64,000 nt of DNA from Shigella phage phi25-307, in sequence record MG589383. One strand, given 5' to 3'. The notes under the pieces were generated by a model that was not told the DNA's origin, searched no databases, and saw nothing but the letters and a program-made list of their open reading frames with translations. The position numbers and the translations under genes are program-made. Below, in pieces: positions 662 through 59,144 of the stretch. The first letter of the stretch is position 1; every line of letters starts with the position of its first letter.

Positions 662-2749
662 CTATCCTTGGACAAATTTAAACGGAACTGATTCTAAATC
701 CATTAAAGATGCTAACAATTTCAATCCTTTAGGAGCACTAGTTTTTTCTACAAATGAGGAGAACGATATCGGCTCATCTGATTCGATTTCACCCGTCATA
801 GCAACCACCTCACCTGTTTCCATGAGAACATCACCGTCGTAAATGACAGCTTCGTCCAACTGGTCCGAGGACATGACTTCAGCTTGAATAAATTTAAGGT
901 TGGATTCTAAACCTGCACCAGTGTCAGATGACGCATCTGTAATTTTATTTATCTGCAAGAGAATGCCTCTAGGCAAAATAATTTCTTGCTCATTAGGGTG
1001 ATTACTCAACTGTCCAGGATAAATCACGTTAACTTTATGGGCGCCATCAATAGCCCATCCAACGTTAACACGGATTTGGTCTGGTGCATGCATAGCTGTT
1101 CTTACTTGACTAGGAGAAATAGTAACACCTTCGTCATTATTGTCAATGTTAAGCTCTTTGCGAACTTCTTCAGGAGCAAGTCCAAGGGCAACGTTCTCTT
1201 TAAACCCACCGAAAATAATAGGAGCTAGTGAAGTGGAAACATAGTTTCTGAAGTAGAATACCTTATTTTTAACCATTGCTTCGTAAATAGGCATTCTGAT
1301 AGACTGAGCTCTATATAACGTTAGTCCTTCAGGTAAACGGTCTCCATTTAAAAACGCTGAATCAAGACCATCAATAGCGCGTTTAACTTCATCTTCATCT
1401 GCAACATCGTAAAAATCTGGTTTATAACGACCTAACAGCATATTATTGATATCGGTATACGCAGAAGAGGCATATTCACGAATAGCTCGTTTTTCAGCAA
1501 CAGAGTATTGATTAGGGACCCGATTCATTGTTATATTAAAGGTGCCTCTAGCCGATTCTCGTGCATAAGTATACATCACATTAGACAAGAACGCTGATTT
1601 ACGTTGTTTCCAAGTTTTTTCAGATACTTCAGCTAAAACGTCGTCAGCCAGTTGGAAATTATCACGTCTAAAATCTTCAAACCATTCGTCTTTAATAGAG
1701 TCTGCAATTTCATTTGCAGCTTCAACAAAAGCAGTTAATGCTTTAACAGATGTTGTTTTTTCAGTTTTAATTTTCTTAGCAAACTTTTCTAAAGTTGGCT
1801 TAATAACACTACCATAAGAAACTTCATCAGCAAATCTAAAGGATTCATCAATACGATTATAAATCTTATTTTCGATATCAGCAACTAAAGTGCCTTTTGC
1901 TGTGGACGATGCTTGGGCTAGTACGATTTCATATGCTTCAGGAAGTAATTCGGCTGTAGCTGGGCCACTAACTTCTTTAGCAGAATTTTCGTATTTCTGG
2001 AATAACTCACCTTCTTGTCGGTCAGCTTCTAAAGATTGACTTGCTGCAATAGCACGACGAGAAATTTTAGTACGAGCAATAACAGGCTTATCTTTACGTT
2101 TTTCTTCTACAGCAGCAATAGAACCAGCGATAGCCGTTTCTTTGGTGACCTTTTCGCCAGTCTTTTTACTCACATAAACTTCGCCAACATCAGAATCTAC
2201 TTTCGTGTACAACTCTGTGTTAATGTTAGGGATGCCTTTAATATCTTCAATGTTGGCATTTTTGCGAACCATCATCACATAGGTGTGTTTACCTGTGAAT
2301 TGATACATTGCCGACAATACTTTAAAACGACCACCGGTTTTAGTAGAAACTAAACGAGCAAGAAGAGTTTGAAGCTGCTGTCCGCGTCCTTTCAATTTCT
2401 TGGTAGGGAATCGGAATAGAACTGCATCCATACGAAGAGCTTTAACCTGTTCATATACTGTATTGAAAATGGTGTTGATTGCATCAATAGGAGCAGGACC
2501 AAGGCCATTTTTCAATTCAGCGAGATTGCCCTTTTCAGATAGACTCATAATAACAACATGAGCGTATTTGTCGCCAAGTTTAACTTGTTTTACAGCATCA
2601 CCTTCGGAAAGGTAAGAGAATAAGCGAACTACGATGTTTGTATCGATATCACCAATTTTCCAGACTTGTGGAACTTTAGCTTTAGGGTTCAAATTGACGA
2701 CAGGAAGACTGCCTTCAGATTCAAACACTTCATTTAATTGTTCAGACAT
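662..2749 (-). CDS. alt: Alt-like ADP-ribosyltransferase (head-packaged), 695 aa
   Basis: C-terminal ART motifs in order: R (LYRAQSIR), STS (YVSTSLAP), E-x-E (NEQEIILPRG); size close to T4 Alt (about 682 aa); position between gene 54 and ligase as in T4. Confidence 0.8.
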   Translation of the reverse strand: MSEQLNEVFESEGSLPVVNLNPKAKVPQVWKIGDIDTNIVVRLFSYLSEGDAVKQVKLGDKYAHVVIMSLSEKGNLAELKNGLGPAPIDAINTIFNTVYEQVKALRMDAVLFRFPTKKLKGRGQQLQTLLARLVSTKTGGRFKVLSAMYQFTGKHTYVMMVRKNANIEDIKGIPNINTELYTKVDSDVGEVYVSKKTGEKVTKETAIAGSIAAVEEKRKDKPVIARTKISRRAIAASQSLEADRQEGELFQKYENSAKEVSGPATAELLPEAYEIVLAQASSTAKGTLVADIENKIYNRIDESFRFADEVSYGSVIKPTLEKFAKKIKTEKTTSVKALTAFVEAANEIADSIKDEWFEDFRRDNFQLADDVLAEVSEKTWKQRKSAFLSNVMYTYARESARGTFNITMNRVPNQYSVAEKRAIREYASSAYTDINNMLLGRYKPDFYDVADEDEVKRAIDGLDSAFLNGDRLPEGLTLYRAQSIRMPIYEAMVKNKVFYFRNYVSTSLAPIIFGGFKENVALGLAPEEVRKELNIDNNDEGVTISPSQVRTAMHAPDQIRVNVGWAIDGAHKVNVIYPGQLSNHPNEQEIILPRGILLQINKITDASSDTGAGLESNLKFIQAEVMSSDQLDEAVIYDGDVLMETGEVVAMTGEIESDEPISFSSFVEKTSAPKGLKLLASLMDLESVPFKFVQG

Positions 2750-2784
2750 AGTGTTTTCCTTTTAGTAATAATTTATATTTATGC

Positions 2785-2805
2785 CAAAAAGAGCCCGAAG
2801 GCTCT
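2785..2805 (-). terminator. Intrinsic terminator (UUCG-loop hairpin plus U-run)
   Basis: AGAGCC-CGAA-GGCTCT hairpin at 2790-2805, followed on the minus strand by TTTTT; abuts the stop of ORF 2805..2993. Confidence 0.6.
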
Positions 2806-2993
2806 TAATCCACAATCGGGAGCAAAGTACGATAAACTTCAAAATTAGGGCCTTTTTCGTACCCATTAACGTTATCTACGAAAACCCGATACGAATTTTC
2901 ATTAGGAAAATCTAATATAATCTGAGAGCAAGAGGTGGAAACATCTCCACCATCCTTCTTAGCTACAATAACTGTTTCTAAATAAGCTTTCAT
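2805..2993 (-). CDS. Hypothetical protein, 62 aa
   Basis: Start trimmed to the ATG overlapping the ligase stop (TAATG at 2991-2995); ends at the terminator hairpin. Confidence 0.45.
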   Translation of the reverse strand: MKAYLETVIVAKKDGGDVSTSCSQIILDFPNENSYRVFVDNVNGYEKGPNFEVYRTLLPIVD

Positions 2994-4486
2994 TATAAAC
3001 CTGTCTGGGACCACGGTCCAAATACGTCTTCAAACGAATCCGCTTCTGTTTTATCAAAACGGAACCCTTTAATAATTGGAAGGAAAATACCTACAGTACC
3101 TTCACGGCCTTTAGAATGAACCCAACCATTACATTCACAATCAGCGATACGTCCAATTAATTTACCTTCACGAGCTTCGGTCATTAATCGTTCACGGTCT
3201 AAATCATGACGCTCGTCTAAAGGAATAAGAACCTTTACACCGTCAACTGTTTTATGAGTTGTATCTTTAAACCCTGAACCACAATCGGTTGTAATACGAC
3301 GACAACGTGATACGAGTTCGACACCACCTAATTTGTTAGGGTCTTTAGAGTGTTCATAGTATCCTACAACTTCTAAAGCGATATCAATAACTTCTTTAAA
3401 TTTAATTAGGTTCTTAGAGCGTTTGTTTTCCCAATATGAATCACGGTTTTTAAGGATAATACCTTCAAGACCTTGGTCAACATATTTTTTATAAACTACT
3501 TTAGCTTCGTCAAGATTACGAACTAACTGATTTTCAATTGGTTCAATTCGCTTAAAGCCTTCAGCCATATTTTCAAGAGCAGCAAAACGAACATCGTATT
3601 TCTGACCTTTAATTTTGCCGTCAGAATAGACTTCATCTAAAGGAACATAGTCCCAGGCTTGAAGAACCATACCTTCCGCTTCTTTAGGAGAAATAGTCCC
3701 TTGAAGAGATTTATTTGCTAAACCATTTGAAGTGCTACGGTCTGCAACTTGTACTTCTTCGGATTCTTCATTATCACCAAATAAGAACGACAGGTCATTT
3801 CCTGAGCTCACAGCCTTTTTAATATCGAATGAATGATAAACTAATTCACCGTCGATTAAAACCCCATTAGGGTGTCTTTCACGAGCTTCTTTAGTCATTT
3901 CCATTAGTTCATCCGCTAATAGAGTAAGACCATGGTATTCGTTACCAGCACGAGAAAAGAATTGAACACCATCATCGCGAACTTCAGCGAAACAACGAGC
4001 ACCATCTGCTTTTAATTGGGCAAATGCGGGCCATTTAATATTTTTAGTAATCAATTTCTCATCATATGCAGATGCTAACATCTGTGGTTGCAATTGAATA
4101 AGTCCAGGCCACACCTTATTCGCGATAGACACTGAAGCACCTACTTCAAGGTCGCGCATCATTACACGACGAAGGACTTCTACATCATCAGGTTTACCAT
4201 CAGCGATATAACCCATGAGCTCTTTAATTGCAGCATTACCGGTGAGTTTACGAGTGGCTAATGTGAACTCAATAAAATCCAACATGTCATCTAATTCAAG
4301 AAGACCATATGCTTGAGACCTTTCACCCGGTCCTGGCCATTTCTTAATATAATACTGGATACCACGTGCATATGTTAAACGATACACACGTTCAAGTAAT
4401 TTGTTGTCCTTATTTTTCTTAAGGATTTCTTGTTTTGTTTTAGTAGAACCGATCGCAGCTATTTGGTTTAAAATATCTAAAATCAT
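2993..4486 (-). CDS. 30: ATP-dependent DNA ligase, 497 aa
   Basis: Adenylation motif KADGAR; N-terminal region closely resembles T4 gp30 as remembered; size and position between alt and rIII match T4. Confidence 0.92.
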   Translation of the reverse strand: MILDILNQIAAIGSTKTKQEILKKNKDNKLLERVYRLTYARGIQYYIKKWPGPGERSQAYGLLELDDMLDFIEFTLATRKLTGNAAIKELMGYIADGKPDDVEVLRRVMMRDLEVGASVSIANKVWPGLIQLQPQMLASAYDEKLITKNIKWPAFAQLKADGARCFAEVRDDGVQFFSRAGNEYHGLTLLADELMEMTKEARERHPNGVLIDGELVYHSFDIKKAVSSGNDLSFLFGDNEESEEVQVADRSTSNGLANKSLQGTISPKEAEGMVLQAWDYVPLDEVYSDGKIKGQKYDVRFAALENMAEGFKRIEPIENQLVRNLDEAKVVYKKYVDQGLEGIILKNRDSYWENKRSKNLIKFKEVIDIALEVVGYYEHSKDPNKLGGVELVSRCRRITTDCGSGFKDTTHKTVDGVKVLIPLDERHDLDRERLMTEAREGKLIGRIADCECNGWVHSKGREGTVGIFLPIIKGFRFDKTEADSFEDVFGPWSQTGL

Positions 4487-55685: not shown

Positions 55686-56432
55686 TTAACCTTTAATCAG
55701 TTGGAATAATGATGCGCTAAGTGGTAAGCCACGTTTCAATTTTAATTTACCAATGAAACCGATCTTTTCAAAACGTTGCAGACCTTGGATAACTTTATCA
55801 TATGTATCGAAAAGCGATTCAGCGTCAGTTAATTTAGTTTTAGTTTTCCAGTCAGAGCCTTTAAGAAGAACGTTGAGTTTAGTAAGTTCATGGCCTTCTG
55901 CTTGATGCGAGCCATTAATGCGTGCTTTCAAAGCAACAATTCTAAGTTTAGCTTCGTCAGATAAAGGTTGATTTTTCATCATGTTCGCCATATGCTTAAC
56001 ACGATTTTCACGTTTTGCTCGGATTTTTAAAATGGTATCATAAACCTTTTTAATTTGGGCCCATTTCTTCTCGTCGAGATTAAGTTTCTCTACTTTACGG
56101 GCGGAAGGATTAGCGATACGTCTTGCAATAGCGTCACGTTTCTCAATAAGTTCTTCTAATGTTAAATCAGAACGAGCCGTGTTATATTTTTTCTTAACTG
56201 GGATAACATTACCTTTAATGTAACCGATATCGTTATTAAAACGTTCTAAGGATAATTTCTCACCTTCAACAGAGTTATTGAAAGATTCACCTGAGTAAGC
56301 GCAGACCTTTTGATCAAGAATGTTTTTAAGGTAATTAAAGTCTAAGTTAAAATCCTTAGAGCGTCTCTTCGCAGAAGCTCTGGTGTGGTCAAGACGACGA
56401 TTGATTTTGTTAATTTTATTATTTGATAACAT
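55686..56432 (-). CDS. srd: Srd-like protein, 248 aa
   Basis: Size and position (between dda and modA) match T4 srd; no motif check possible. Confidence 0.45.
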   Translation of the reverse strand: MLSNNKINKINRRLDHTRASAKRRSKDFNLDFNYLKNILDQKVCAYSGESFNNSVEGEKLSLERFNNDIGYIKGNVIPVKKKYNTARSDLTLEELIEKRDAIARRIANPSARKVEKLNLDEKKWAQIKKVYDTILKIRAKRENRVKHMANMMKNQPLSDEAKLRIVALKARINGSHQAEGHELTKLNVLLKGSDWKTKTKLTDAESLFDTYDKVIQGLQRFEKIGFIGKLKLKRGLPLSASLFQLIKG

Positions 56433-56585
56433 AATATTTTCCTCTGTCTTACGGACGTTAGGTCATTTAGCTGATATGTCCTATAATATCATGCCCTCAG
56501 GTAGTGTACACTCTTTTTTCGTAAAATGCTTTAATTTTTTATGTGTTATAATGGTTCTGAGTTCCATCCGGTTATTCCAATCCAG

Positions 56586-57194
56586 TCAGTAACCGACAAT
56601 AGACAGATTCCAGATTGTATAACGTCCATCTTGAATAATAGAATCTACACGCAGTGTAGTCCCTATAGGGAGCATAAATTCACATTCGTCAGATATAAGT
56701 CTAGCATTAGACCGTCTTGTCGCTTCAGGGAAAGCTCCATTGAACTCACAAGATGGTGCAGCCAGAATCATATTAAGCATATGTTCACGGAAGTTGAAAG
56801 CAAATGGTGCATCTTTGATGCAGAACATATTAAATGTTCCGTAAAAATTATATGAAGCGAAGTTACGTGCTACACCAAACACCGGACTAAAGCTCATTAC
56901 TCTATCAAATTTAATAATACTACCAACGCCTTTATCATCGAGTGTGGCCATAGTTTTCTTAGAGATTCCACGATACATTGTCTCAGGAACAGAAGACGTC
57001 CAATTTCTACGAACGATTGAACTTAAATCTTTTTGGATGCTGTCTGGCTTGTTTTCCATACATTGCCACAGTACACTTTGTTCAATGTCGCTGAATTGCT
57101 CATCGATTTTGTACTGAAGCATATCTTGATAATCCGGGCATTGAGCACGACGAACCATTTCTTCAATTTCACACTCGTTATACGGCATAAACAT
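56586..57194 (-). CDS. modA: ModA/ModB-family ADP-ribosyltransferase, 202 aa
   Basis: ART triad in order: R (TMYRGIS), S-x-S (VMSFSP), E-x-E (DECEFMLP); size close to T4 ModA (200 aa). Only one mod paralog is present. Confidence 0.6.
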   Translation of the reverse strand: MFMPYNECEIEEMVRRAQCPDYQDMLQYKIDEQFSDIEQSVLWQCMENKPDSIQKDLSSIVRRNWTSSVPETMYRGISKKTMATLDDKGVGSIIKFDRVMSFSPVFGVARNFASYNFYGTFNMFCIKDAPFAFNFREHMLNMILAAPSCEFNGAFPEATRRSNARLISDECEFMLPIGTTLRVDSIIQDGRYTIWNLSIVGY

Positions 57195-57222
57195 TTAGGT
57201 TTCTCCTCTGGTTGATAAAAGT

Positions 57223-57251
57223 ATAGTATCATCGTCGGTAGAGTTTGTACA
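57223..57251 (-). promoter_or_regulatory. Early promoter for modA (TGTACA, 17 nt, TACTAT)
   Basis: Minus strand GTGTACAAACTCTACCGACGATGATACTATAC, followed by GAGGAG and the ATG. Confidence 0.5.
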
Positions 57252-57380
57252 CTAAAAATTCAACATTTTTAAATGAATGATTTTGTTAGGTATTCGCGTT
57301 CTTGAAGTTCAGATTGACATGTCATGATAGACCTCCATTTAAAGATAAGCCTATCATAACACGAGAGGAGGGAATGTAAA

Positions 57381-57545
57381 CTACTTTTTAAGCTTTCCTA
57401 CTAAAGGTCCATCAGGTCCAGGTTGTTCTAACATGAATAAGGATGCTTTAAAAAGCAATGCCAACCCTTTCACCATTCGATACCATGTCTCAAAGTCTTT
57501 TTCCTTGATTTCTAGTAAGAATTTCTCTTTAAATTTCTCTTTCAT
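57381..57545 (-). CDS. Hypothetical protein, 54 aa (below ORF-track cut-off)
   Basis: Hand translation MKEKFKEKFLLEIKEKDFETWYRMVKGLALLFKASLFMLEQPGPDGPLVGKLKK; ATG overlaps the upstream stop (ATGA). Confidence 0.4.
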   Translation of the reverse strand: MKEKFKEKFLLEIKEKDFETWYRMVKGLALLFKASLFMLEQPGPDGPLVGKLKK

Positions 57546-57730
57546 TTCCAAGGACTCCATGGTGGAGGGTCGTCATAATAAGAGGCAAGGTCTTTCAGGG
57601 CTTCAACAGGTAAACTACAGCCGTGACGTTGTATAATACTATCTAGTTCATCAACAAGTTCACTACGATGCACTTTAGGAGCCTCAACTTCGGGCTCATC
57701 AAACATACTCATCAAGTCCATATTATTCAC
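57542..57730 (-). CDS. Hypothetical acidic protein, 62 aa
   Basis: ORF with 8-nt overlap onto the upstream gene. Confidence 0.5.
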   Translation of the reverse strand: MNNMDLMSMFDEPEVEAPKVHRSELVDELDSIIQRHGCSLPVEALKDLASYYDDPPPWSPWK

Positions 57731-58187
57731 CGAGATAAAAACTAGCAGGTTCAGAGAATGTTTCTAGCGCTACACCTTTTGTCTTAAAAAATTTCCAAAT
57801 AGCTCGTTGCAAATGGATTAAATCTGCTAATGATGTAATAAAGTATTTTTTGGCAAAATACTTATGGTCTCGCTTTTCAAACAGGTCTAAACGCTTTTCT
57901 GGATTCACATAAACGGCATTTTCCGTAGATTCATAACCTAAGTCCTTTATGCCTTCTTCAAGACTAAACGGAGAATTTTTAGAATGAGTAATAGCTCCAA
58001 CTCGCTCTACACGAATTTTGTAACCTTTAGGAATCTGCAATTTACAGAATTCTTCTACGATATATTGCGGATTATTTAGACTTTTGTTAATGAGAATAGC
58101 TATTTCTAGTGGAGTCTTATCTTCTACTGGTATATGTTTAAACGACTTGGCTTCAAGCAAATACATTTTAAATAACATAGCATCCAT
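57723..58187 (-). CDS. Hypothetical protein, 154 aa
   Basis: ORF in the modA-soc interval. Confidence 0.55.
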   Translation of the reverse strand: MDAMLFKMYLLEAKSFKHIPVEDKTPLEIAILINKSLNNPQYIVEEFCKLQIPKGYKIRVERVGAITHSKNSPFSLEEGIKDLGYESTENAVYVNPEKRLDLFEKRDHKYFAKKYFITSLADLIHLQRAIWKFFKTKGVALETFSEPASFYLGE

Positions 58188-58393
58188 TATAATTTCCTCG
58201 ATGGTTCACCCATATAAAGTTTTACAATACGTTCGCCTTCATCTTCGATGAGCTTCTCTTCATGTTTCTGGAATTCTTTAGCCATATTCTCTTCAAGAAC
58301 ATCCAGCCAATCTTCTGGACCGACACCATCGTCCCAGCTTTTAAACCATTTAACTATCTTGTTCATTCGCAGCTCCCTGAGCTTGAACCACAA
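58187..58393 (-). CDS. Hypothetical protein, 68 aa
   Basis: ORF whose ATG overlaps the downstream gene start region. Confidence 0.5.
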   Translation of the reverse strand: MWFKLRELRMNKIVKWFKSWDDGVGPEDWLDVLEENMAKEFQKHEEKLIEDEGERIVKLYMGEPSRKL

Positions 58394-58563
58394 TCAGAAT
58401 AACTTGACCCAGAATCACCAGGCCAAGACGATACGTATGAATGATTATAATCGGAAGAGCTTGAAGCATTAACCTGTTTTGTTTTTGGACGAACAACTTC
58501 TTCCATCATTCCGTCACCGATATATTCCCAACTTTTTTCGTGTGTATCAGGAATAGGCATCAT
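58363..58563 (-). CDS. Hypothetical Ser-rich protein, 66 aa
   Basis: Track ORF 58363..58686 trimmed to the first ATG after the upstream stop, preceded by AAGG. Confidence 0.4.
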   Translation of the reverse strand: MMPIPDTHEKSWEYIGDGMMEEVVRPKTKQVNASSSSDYNHSYVSSWPGDSGSSYSDCGSSSGSCE

Positions 58564-58576
58564 ACCTTCGCCTGGA

Positions 58577-58804
58577 TTAACAGCAAACAACTTCTTCAGC
58601 ATCGTAAGCATTAATTGTTCCTCGAACAAAACGAACACCACCGTCATCCCAACGGATTTCGGCATTAAATTTGACGTCTTCACCATCCATCATGAACGAG
58701 TGTACGACTACATCATCATAATATCCAAGGCCGTATTTCAATGAAACTTCTTGAGCAATCAAAGCACCTAATGTGTTATTAGGTTTAATCCAACGATTTA
58801 ACAT
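58577..58804 (-). CDS. Hypothetical protein, 75 aa
   Basis: Start trimmed to ATG 58804, preceded by AAGAGGAGAA and the promoter at 58833-58862. Confidence 0.5.
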   Translation of the reverse strand: MLNRWIKPNNTLGALIAQEVSLKYGLGYYDDVVVHSFMMDGEDVKFNAEIRWDDGGVRFVRGTINAYDAEEVVCC

Positions 58805-58832
58805 ATTGTTCTCCTCTTGAGTAAGTAAGAAT

Positions 58833-58862
58833 ATCTTAACACAGTTTTTAGCGGTTGTAAAC
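58833..58862 (-). promoter_or_regulatory. Early promoter (TTTACA, 17 nt, TAAGAT)
   Basis: Minus strand GTTTACAACCGCTAAAAACTGTGTTAAGAT. Confidence 0.45.
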
Positions 58863-58871
58863 TGTAGAAAC

Positions 58872-58899
58872 AAAAAAAAAGGAATCCCGAAGGATTCCT
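58872..58899 (-). terminator. Intrinsic terminator after soc
   Basis: GGAAUCC-UUCG-GGAUUCC hairpin followed by a 9-nt U-run on the minus strand. Confidence 0.75.
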
Positions 58900-58907
58900 T
58901 AAATTAT

Positions 58908-59144
58908 TTAACCGCTTACTGGTGTAGGCGTGAACATTGCTGCGTTCTTGGTCTTCCAGTCAGCAGCATCAGTTACTACCGTTGTATAAGCAGCTTTTTC
59001 AGACGGGAAAGTCTGATAATGAGAATCTGCAATACGATGTTCGTTTGAATAAATCTCAAACGGTACAGAAACTTCCATACCTTTAACTTCTTTACCTTCA
59101 CCTGCAGGATGCGTAAAGGTTTTGATGTTTACATAACCACCCAT
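58908..59144 (-). CDS. soc: Small outer capsid protein Soc, 78 aa
   Basis: Close match to remembered T4 Soc (GYVNIKTF, HYQTFPSEKAAY.TV); size about 80 aa; late promoter upstream. Confidence 0.85.
   Translation of the reverse strand: MGGYVNIKTFTHPAGEGKEVKGMEVSVPFEIYSNEHRIADSHYQTFPSEKAAYTTVVTDAADWKTKNAAMFTPTPVSG

Follow-up and report, generated by a model that had tools for sequence, protein, structure and literature searches.

A short open reading frame between two early promoters of an RB69-like phage as the probable stump of a deleted modB gene

Introduction

ModB of phage T4 is an enzyme that ADP-ribosylates and 'RNAylates' ribosomal proteins. When T4 carries a catalytically dead ModB the burst size goes down four-fold or more and lysis comes later by about 20 min (PMC10468400). 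The early promoters of T4 as a rule possess UP elements in addition to good -35, TGn and -10 elements (PMC2988021), and those named in the region considered here are Pe11.5, Pe12.8 and Pe15.0 (PMC6024815). In RB69 three early promoters of the same region, Pe:13466, Pe:12829 and Pe:12088, were proposed by means of an HMM (Nolan et al. 2006, PMC1524935, Additional file 3), so that the RB69 support for the two promoters discussed below is prediction only (PMC1524935).

The DNA analysed here, referred to as the window, is a stretch of 64,000 nucleotides of Shigella phage phi25-307 (record MG589383), an RB69-like phage of the genus Mosigvirus. The original prediction had read the 186 nt that precede one of its mod genes as a leader in which two tandem early promoters flank an 18-codon micro-ORF with a strong Shine-Dalgarno sequence, an arrangement that could act as a leader peptide or attenuator for an ADP-ribosyltransferase. 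The comparison with related phages leads to a different account of this leader, in which the promoters are retained and the micro-ORF is what is left of a lost gene.

The mod locus of the window

On the minus strand of the window the genes follow one another in the order primase gp61, gp56, soc, mrh.2, mrh, two small ORFs, a 202-aa mod gene, srd, dda.1 and dda. Along the same strand, from 57395 down to 57192, lie an A-rich stretch, a first promoter (P1), the Shine-Dalgarno GGAGGT, the 18-codon ORF, a second promoter (P2), the Shine-Dalgarno AGGAG and the ATG of the mod gene (57194). The sequence elements originally described were all recovered on this strand, and only the coordinates given to the first promoter, 57340-57375, were slightly off. 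A plus-strand ORF at 57302-57379 (25 aa, TTG start) was dismissed, being unsupported and antisense to a conserved promoter and Shine-Dalgarno.

The mod gene (56586..57194, minus strand; AGGAG at 57207..57203) codes for a protein of 202 aa that occupies the position of RB69 and T4 modA. The protein matches phrog_832 with E = 1.8e-38, and its R, S and ExE residues align with those of T4 ModA and ModB. On the strength of this match and of the R-S-ExE motif, its identification as an ADP-ribosyltransferase of the Mod family was upheld; Pfam offered no matching model for any Mod protein, T4 ModA and ModB included. The name 'modA-like' fared less clearly. It agrees with the position of the gene and with the annotation of the RB69 counterpart as modA, but in BLASTP searches with the protein T4 ModB (113 bits, 33% identity over 210 aa) came out ahead of T4 ModA (74 bits). 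The protein is 98% identical to gp017 of PhAPEC2. The product of the deleted gene described below, called 'modB', matches only T4 ModB. What distinguishes ModA from ModB in the naming used for this genus is the order of the genes and not their sequence.

A small ModA.2-like ORF lies at 57542-57730 (minus strand), inside the region 57381-57730, and measures 54-59 aa in GenBank records. Several of them (PNJ-9, ZQ3, HY126, PHB12, moskry and SHSML-52-1) name it 'molybdenum ABC transporter, periplasmic molybdenum-binding protein ModA', a label that looks like a name-transfer error from 'modA.2'.

The two early promoters

P1 (57346..57395, minus strand) contains an A-rich stretch in its upstream part, a -35 element (G)TTTACA at 57381..57375 (TTTACA 57380..57375; GTTTAC 57381..57376), a 16-nt spacer and an extended -10 in which TGt, of the TGn type, occupies 57361..57359 and TATGAT 57358..57353; its transcription start would lie near 57346. 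P2 (57216..57266, minus strand), the early promoter of the downstream mod gene, has a -35 element (G)TGTACA at 57252..57246 (GTGTAC 57252..57247), a 17-nt spacer, TGa at 57231..57229 and the -10 hexamer TACTAT at 57228..57223, with a putative start near 57216. The make-up of T4 early promoters, UP elements included, fits both.

In a scan with the generic sigma-70 consensus P1 scored 10/12 with TG, the best match in 7.5 kb, and P2, with 8/12 by the plain consensus, was not listed. The same scan returned fewer sites than shuffled sequences did (17 vs 24.5); a T4-like phage should not be measured by the generic consensus. Its counterpart of the T4 type, GT[GT]TAC-N15-17-TGnTAnnAT, has 10 matches on the minus strand of the window and none on the plus strand, where Markov-1 simulations gave a chance expectation of 0.025. 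P2 is among these matches, and seven of the ten, P2 included, have TACTAT as their -10 hexamer. P1 escapes the strict motif solely because its spacer is one base too short, a shortening already flagged as '1 bp del' by Nolan et al. (PMC1524935). The ten strict minus-strand matches, at 663, 11582, 15114, 16296, 26977, 37612, 39322, 57252, 58862 and 63489, constitute a ready map of likely early promoters over the window.

Both promoters have counterparts in related phages. RB69 Pe:13466 maps to 57395..57346 (P1) with one substitution and Pe:12829 to 57266..57216 (P2) with three. The sequence upstream of T4 modB is homologous to P1 and the following Shine-Dalgarno (AAAAAGTTGTTTACTTTCC...GATGATATGATAGC...GGAGGCTATCATG). 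In the Dhakavirus phages Bp7 and VR5, P1 and P2 are both retained at equivalent positions, with hexamers and spacing conserved while the spacer sequences have diverged, which is the pattern expected of functional promoters. Taken together, the -35 elements of the form GT(T/G)TAC, the TGn and TAnnAT elements, the enrichment of the motif in the orientation of the early genes and the conservation make it well supported that P1 and P2 are ordinary early promoters of modB and modA, as already predicted in RB69. The part of the original prediction that concerned two early promoters is thus borne out by the RB69 matches, the coding-strand enrichment and the Dhakavirus retention.

Two further observations concern the surroundings of these promoters. 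A third early promoter, of the GTGTACA type (AGTGTACAC...TGaTATTAT), is located upstream of srd at 56476-56525 (minus strand); it carries the GTGTAC variant of the -35 element too, and RB69 Pe:12088 maps to it (56525..56476) with 6 substitutions. Just upstream of P1, a 5-bp hairpin, GGTCC-TGAT-GGACC, is broken in the window (57406-57419, minus strand), where a T-to-A change at 57417 turns it into GGACC...GGACC; p000v and PhAPEC2 retain the hairpin, whose RB69 counterpart is the predicted terminator 'modB<--RB69ORF020c' (TransTerm, PMC1524935).

The deletion within modB

When 451 nt spanning the leader served as the query, most relatives gave a match in two pieces, which together extend over 959 nt, 508 nt more than in the window. 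In PhAPEC2 the extra DNA belongs to a 582-bp gene for a 193-aa 'RNA polymerase ADP-ribosylase', which starts MTCQSELQEREYLTNLIDSKF... and ends ...YKIIHLKMLNF before the stop. A 193-aa gene (MTCQSELQEREYLTN...KIIHLKMLNF and stop) was found exactly between P1 and P2 in PhAPEC2, RB69, SQ17, ST0, SHSML-52-1, ATK47 and moskry. It is annotated modB in RB69 (RB69p019, NP_861709), is a member of phrog_832 and shows 37.5% identity to T4 ModB (E = 1e-26). In these phages the G of the stop codon of modB is the first base of P2, which lies in the 57-nt spacer between modB and modA. The alleles were compared by a three-way alignment and over 19 genomes. The region from P1 to the modA ATG measures 709 nt in the same seven phages and 201 nt in the window and ten phages that share its short allele, with 202 nt in PNJ-6, where one extra base follows the P2 -10 hexamer.

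From P1 to the end of codon 14 of modB no difference separates the window from the intact alleles, and directly after this come the final 30 nt of the gene (ATC ATT CAT TTA AAA ATG TTG AAT TTT TAG; 57252..57281, minus strand), with the original stop TAG at 57254..57252; these 30 nt are identical to the modB 3' end of SQ17, SHSML-52-1 and ATK47. The intact alleles read CCTAACAAAT...(508 bp)...TATACAAAATCATTC, the right-hand side being also written TATACAAAATC after CCTAACAAAT, and the window reads CCTAACAAAATCATTC. Of the direct repeat ACAAA, which in the intact alleles stands on either side of the 508 bp, the junction retains a single copy (57281..57285, minus strand). Homologues of modB stand at the same position in T4 (modA.2 - modB - modA - srd) and in Dhakavirus Bp7 and VR5, and both ends of the gene are retained in the window; the intact gene is therefore ancestral and it is the window that carries the deletion.

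The 18-codon ORF (MTCQSELQEREYLTKSFI, followed by a stop) extends over 57269..57325 on the minus strand, with its stop TAA at 57271..57269. Its codons 1-14 (57325..57284) are the N-terminus of modB, and codons 15-18 with the stop (K-S-F-I-stop) come from the 3' sequence of modB in a shifted frame, since 508 is not a multiple of three. The Shine-Dalgarno GGAGGT (57331..57336, minus strand; 5-nt spacer to the ATG at 57325) is that of modB, now serving the remnant; it is identical in the full-length modB alleles, and the equivalent position in T4 is GGAGGCTATCATG. Codons 15 to about 183 have been removed. The conserved Arg, Ser and Glu-x-Glu positions of Mod proteins all fall within the lost segment, hence the stump cannot be an enzyme. 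As its Shine-Dalgarno and ATG are intact, it is probably translated, into an 18-aa peptide that would have no function of its own.

With both ends matching an ancestral gene, with frame and catalytic residues lost and with ACAAA repeats at the end points, the 186-nt 'leader' is almost certainly what an internal deletion of 508 bp has left of the modB locus, and the micro-ORF the stump of modB.

Distribution and origin of the deletion

A 44-nt probe centred on the junction retrieved it from 13 GenBank records, corresponding to 11 phages: F2, PNJ-9, p000v, SSE1, S143_2, ZQ3, PNJ-6, EP02SG, vB_VIPECOMC06, HY126 and PHB12. The junction is one and the same in all of them. An assembly or sequencing artefact, by which the deletion would belong to this assembly only, has nothing in its favour beyond the general possibility, and it is refuted by the 11 GenBank phages with the identical junction, which come from several countries and were sequenced independently; it has practically no chance of being correct. 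Exact-pattern scans of IMG/VR gave zero matches for the scar junction and zero likewise for the intact 5' junction, and are uninformative. The window has PNJ-9 as its top GenBank match over 10 kb (97.7%) and is identical to no carrier of the scar.

The interior of modB was found at >=90% identity in about 139 GenBank records. Loss of the gene by this deletion hence concerns some 8%, about 1/12, of the RB69-like records (13 with the scar vs about 139 intact), phiE142 being counted separately. In phiE142 (KU255730.1, 1791-1925) modB carries another deletion, of 447 bp and in frame, between two 9-bp AATCTGAAC repeats; the remnant is a 44-aa ORF (MTCQSEQEYMVSG...KMLNF; ALY07844) annotated 'ADP-ribosylase' although it is without the catalytic Arg and Ser. 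This deletion is independent, so modB has been lost at least twice.

Among the carriers, the 5' part of the scar, from P1 through the junction, is identical in 12 of 12, the window included, which could reflect either a recent origin or constraint. The P2 -10 hexamer varies (TACTAT, TATTAT or TAATAT). The stop of the remnant is TGA in seven carriers and TAA in four (F2, PNJ-9, vB_VIPECOMC06 and the window); this choice is the synonymous Leu TTA/TTG polymorphism already present in intact modB.

The same junction occurs on several different flanking haplotypes, and in nearest-neighbour comparisons the carriers are interleaved with intact alleles on both flanks. The nearest upstream neighbour of the window is ST0, and over 100 nt downstream the window and SQ17 have the same haplotype; ST0 and SQ17 are both intact. 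This interleaving fits a single deletion combined with the frequent recombination of T4-like phages, and we infer from it that the deletion may have happened once and then been shuffled by recombination. Repeated deletion at the same 5-bp ACAAA repeat may be an alternative origin.

The records of the carriers present some peculiarities of their own. That of F2 (MN864145.1) classes the phage as a Tequatrovirus ('Tequatrovirus efftwo'); at the modB locus F2 is ~97% identical to Mosigvirus phages and bears the Mosigvirus modB scar. In PNJ-6 (2374-3044) srd is divided into two CDSs, and in ZQ3 (1612-2169) the surviving mod gene is annotated shorter, 558 bp vs 609 bp; either further gene decay or sequencing errors in the early region may be involved.

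Regulatory readings of the leader

If the leader worked as an attenuator, translation of the 18-codon ORF would control read-through into, or translation of, the downstream ADP-ribosyltransferase gene. A strong Shine-Dalgarno and an ATG do stand between a good promoter and the mod gene, and the ORF is intact in 12 of the 12 carriers, the window among them. However, the ORF is the beginning of modB, cut short after 14 codons and joined out of frame to what follows, and neither a terminator nor an alternative hairpin accompanies it. A scan of the minus strand between 57380 and 57195 revealed no terminator-like site between the ORF and the mod gene; the 162-nt leader of the P1 transcript folds no better than its shuffles (-20.1 vs -22.3 +/- 3.7 kcal/mol, z = +0.59); and an Rfam scan of 56000-59000 with E up to 1 gave chance-level eukaryotic and viral matches only, none of them in the leader. 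The stop of the ORF precedes the modA Shine-Dalgarno by 62 nt and the two are separated by an independent promoter, so that translational coupling is not plausible. The peptide itself is not fixed either, given the Ser16Thr change in PHB12 and the varying stop codon.

Conservation of the micro-ORF had been named beforehand as a test of the attenuator proposal, and it speaks against it: the arrangement is present only in the deletion carriers (13 records) and absent from the about 139 related records, in which the corresponding ATG begins the full modB of 193 aa. A leader peptide or attenuator was consequently abandoned as an explanation and must be regarded as very improbable.

A related proposal is that the stump has been co-opted, either because the 18-aa peptide is functional or because its translation stabilises the P1 transcript and raises modA expression, offsetting the loss of modB. 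The scar allele does persist in 11 independently isolated phages on different flanking backgrounds, with promoter and Shine-Dalgarno undamaged. But these two elements are equally invariant in the intact alleles, and thus give no sign of extra constraint; phiE142 lost modB in another way and has a different stump; and no annotator called the ORF, for which none of the 11 GenBank carrier phages has an annotated feature. We consider co-option to be scarcely credible on these grounds. In a broader form, with some RB69-like phages being natural modB-null phages, the surviving paralogue might cover both roles, given that its sequence is nearer to T4 ModB than to T4 ModA, and its expression might be boosted or tuned by the retained promoter and the translated stump, in the manner of an upstream ORF; this is a speculative idea with little likelihood.

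Proposed course of events and significance

Under the preferred reading, that of a gene lost by internal deletion, the ancestral state is the one kept by RB69 and most Mosigvirus phages, in which P1 and a strong Shine-Dalgarno drive modB, and P2, at the modB stop, serves modA. The deletion between the two ACAAA repeats would be most simply explained by replication slippage or microhomology-mediated recombination. As a result, the old modB start now opens an ORF of 18 codons and P1 sits 128 nt upstream of P2. P1 very probably still fires, its transcript running straight into modA, which would then be transcribed from both promoters. In the intact phages P1 transcripts would already read through modB into modA, and neither the read-through transcript nor the stump peptide is likely to be regulatory. 

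The finding is an ordinary gene-loss scar between known promoters, with little bearing on regulation. For gene callers and readers it implies that the short ORF should not be taken as a gene or a leader peptide. Since about 1/12 of the RB69-like records are without modB, the gene is dispensable in this lineage, at least under the conditions of isolation. This natural dispensability in some RB69-like phages is only a mildly interesting point; even so, the modB-less phages are ready-made natural knock-outs with which the contribution of ModB, and compensation by the second Mod paralogue, could be studied.

Comparison with known systems

The leader-peptide attenuators of the trp and his type share with the window a short ORF that has a Shine-Dalgarno and is placed after a promoter and ahead of a structural gene. 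They differ from it in their terminator and antiterminator structures, their regulatory codons and their conservation as a unit, all of which are missing here, and in that the window has an independent promoter between the ORF and the gene.

The modB-modA region of T4 resembles the window in gene order (modA.2 - modB - modA - srd) and in having a homologous promoter and Shine-Dalgarno upstream of modB (GTTTAC...TGaTATGAT...GGAGGCTATCATG). In T4, however, modB and modA overlap by 4 nt with no promoter between them, and it is because of this overlap that T4 is without P2; moreover, identity between the Mod proteins of T4 and those of the lineage of the window amounts to only 30-37%.

Phage phiE142 is closer in kind, as its modB also suffered an independent internal deletion at a short direct repeat, with the start and the 3' end kept. 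The deletion differs in length (447 bp), in being in frame, in the repeat used (AATCTGAAC) and in leaving a 44-aa annotated product.

The modB locus of RB69 has the same promoters, Shine-Dalgarno, ATG, first 14 codons and last 30 nt as the window. What sets it apart is that the 508 internal bases are kept, so that the two promoters lie 636 nt apart in RB69 and 128 nt apart in the window.
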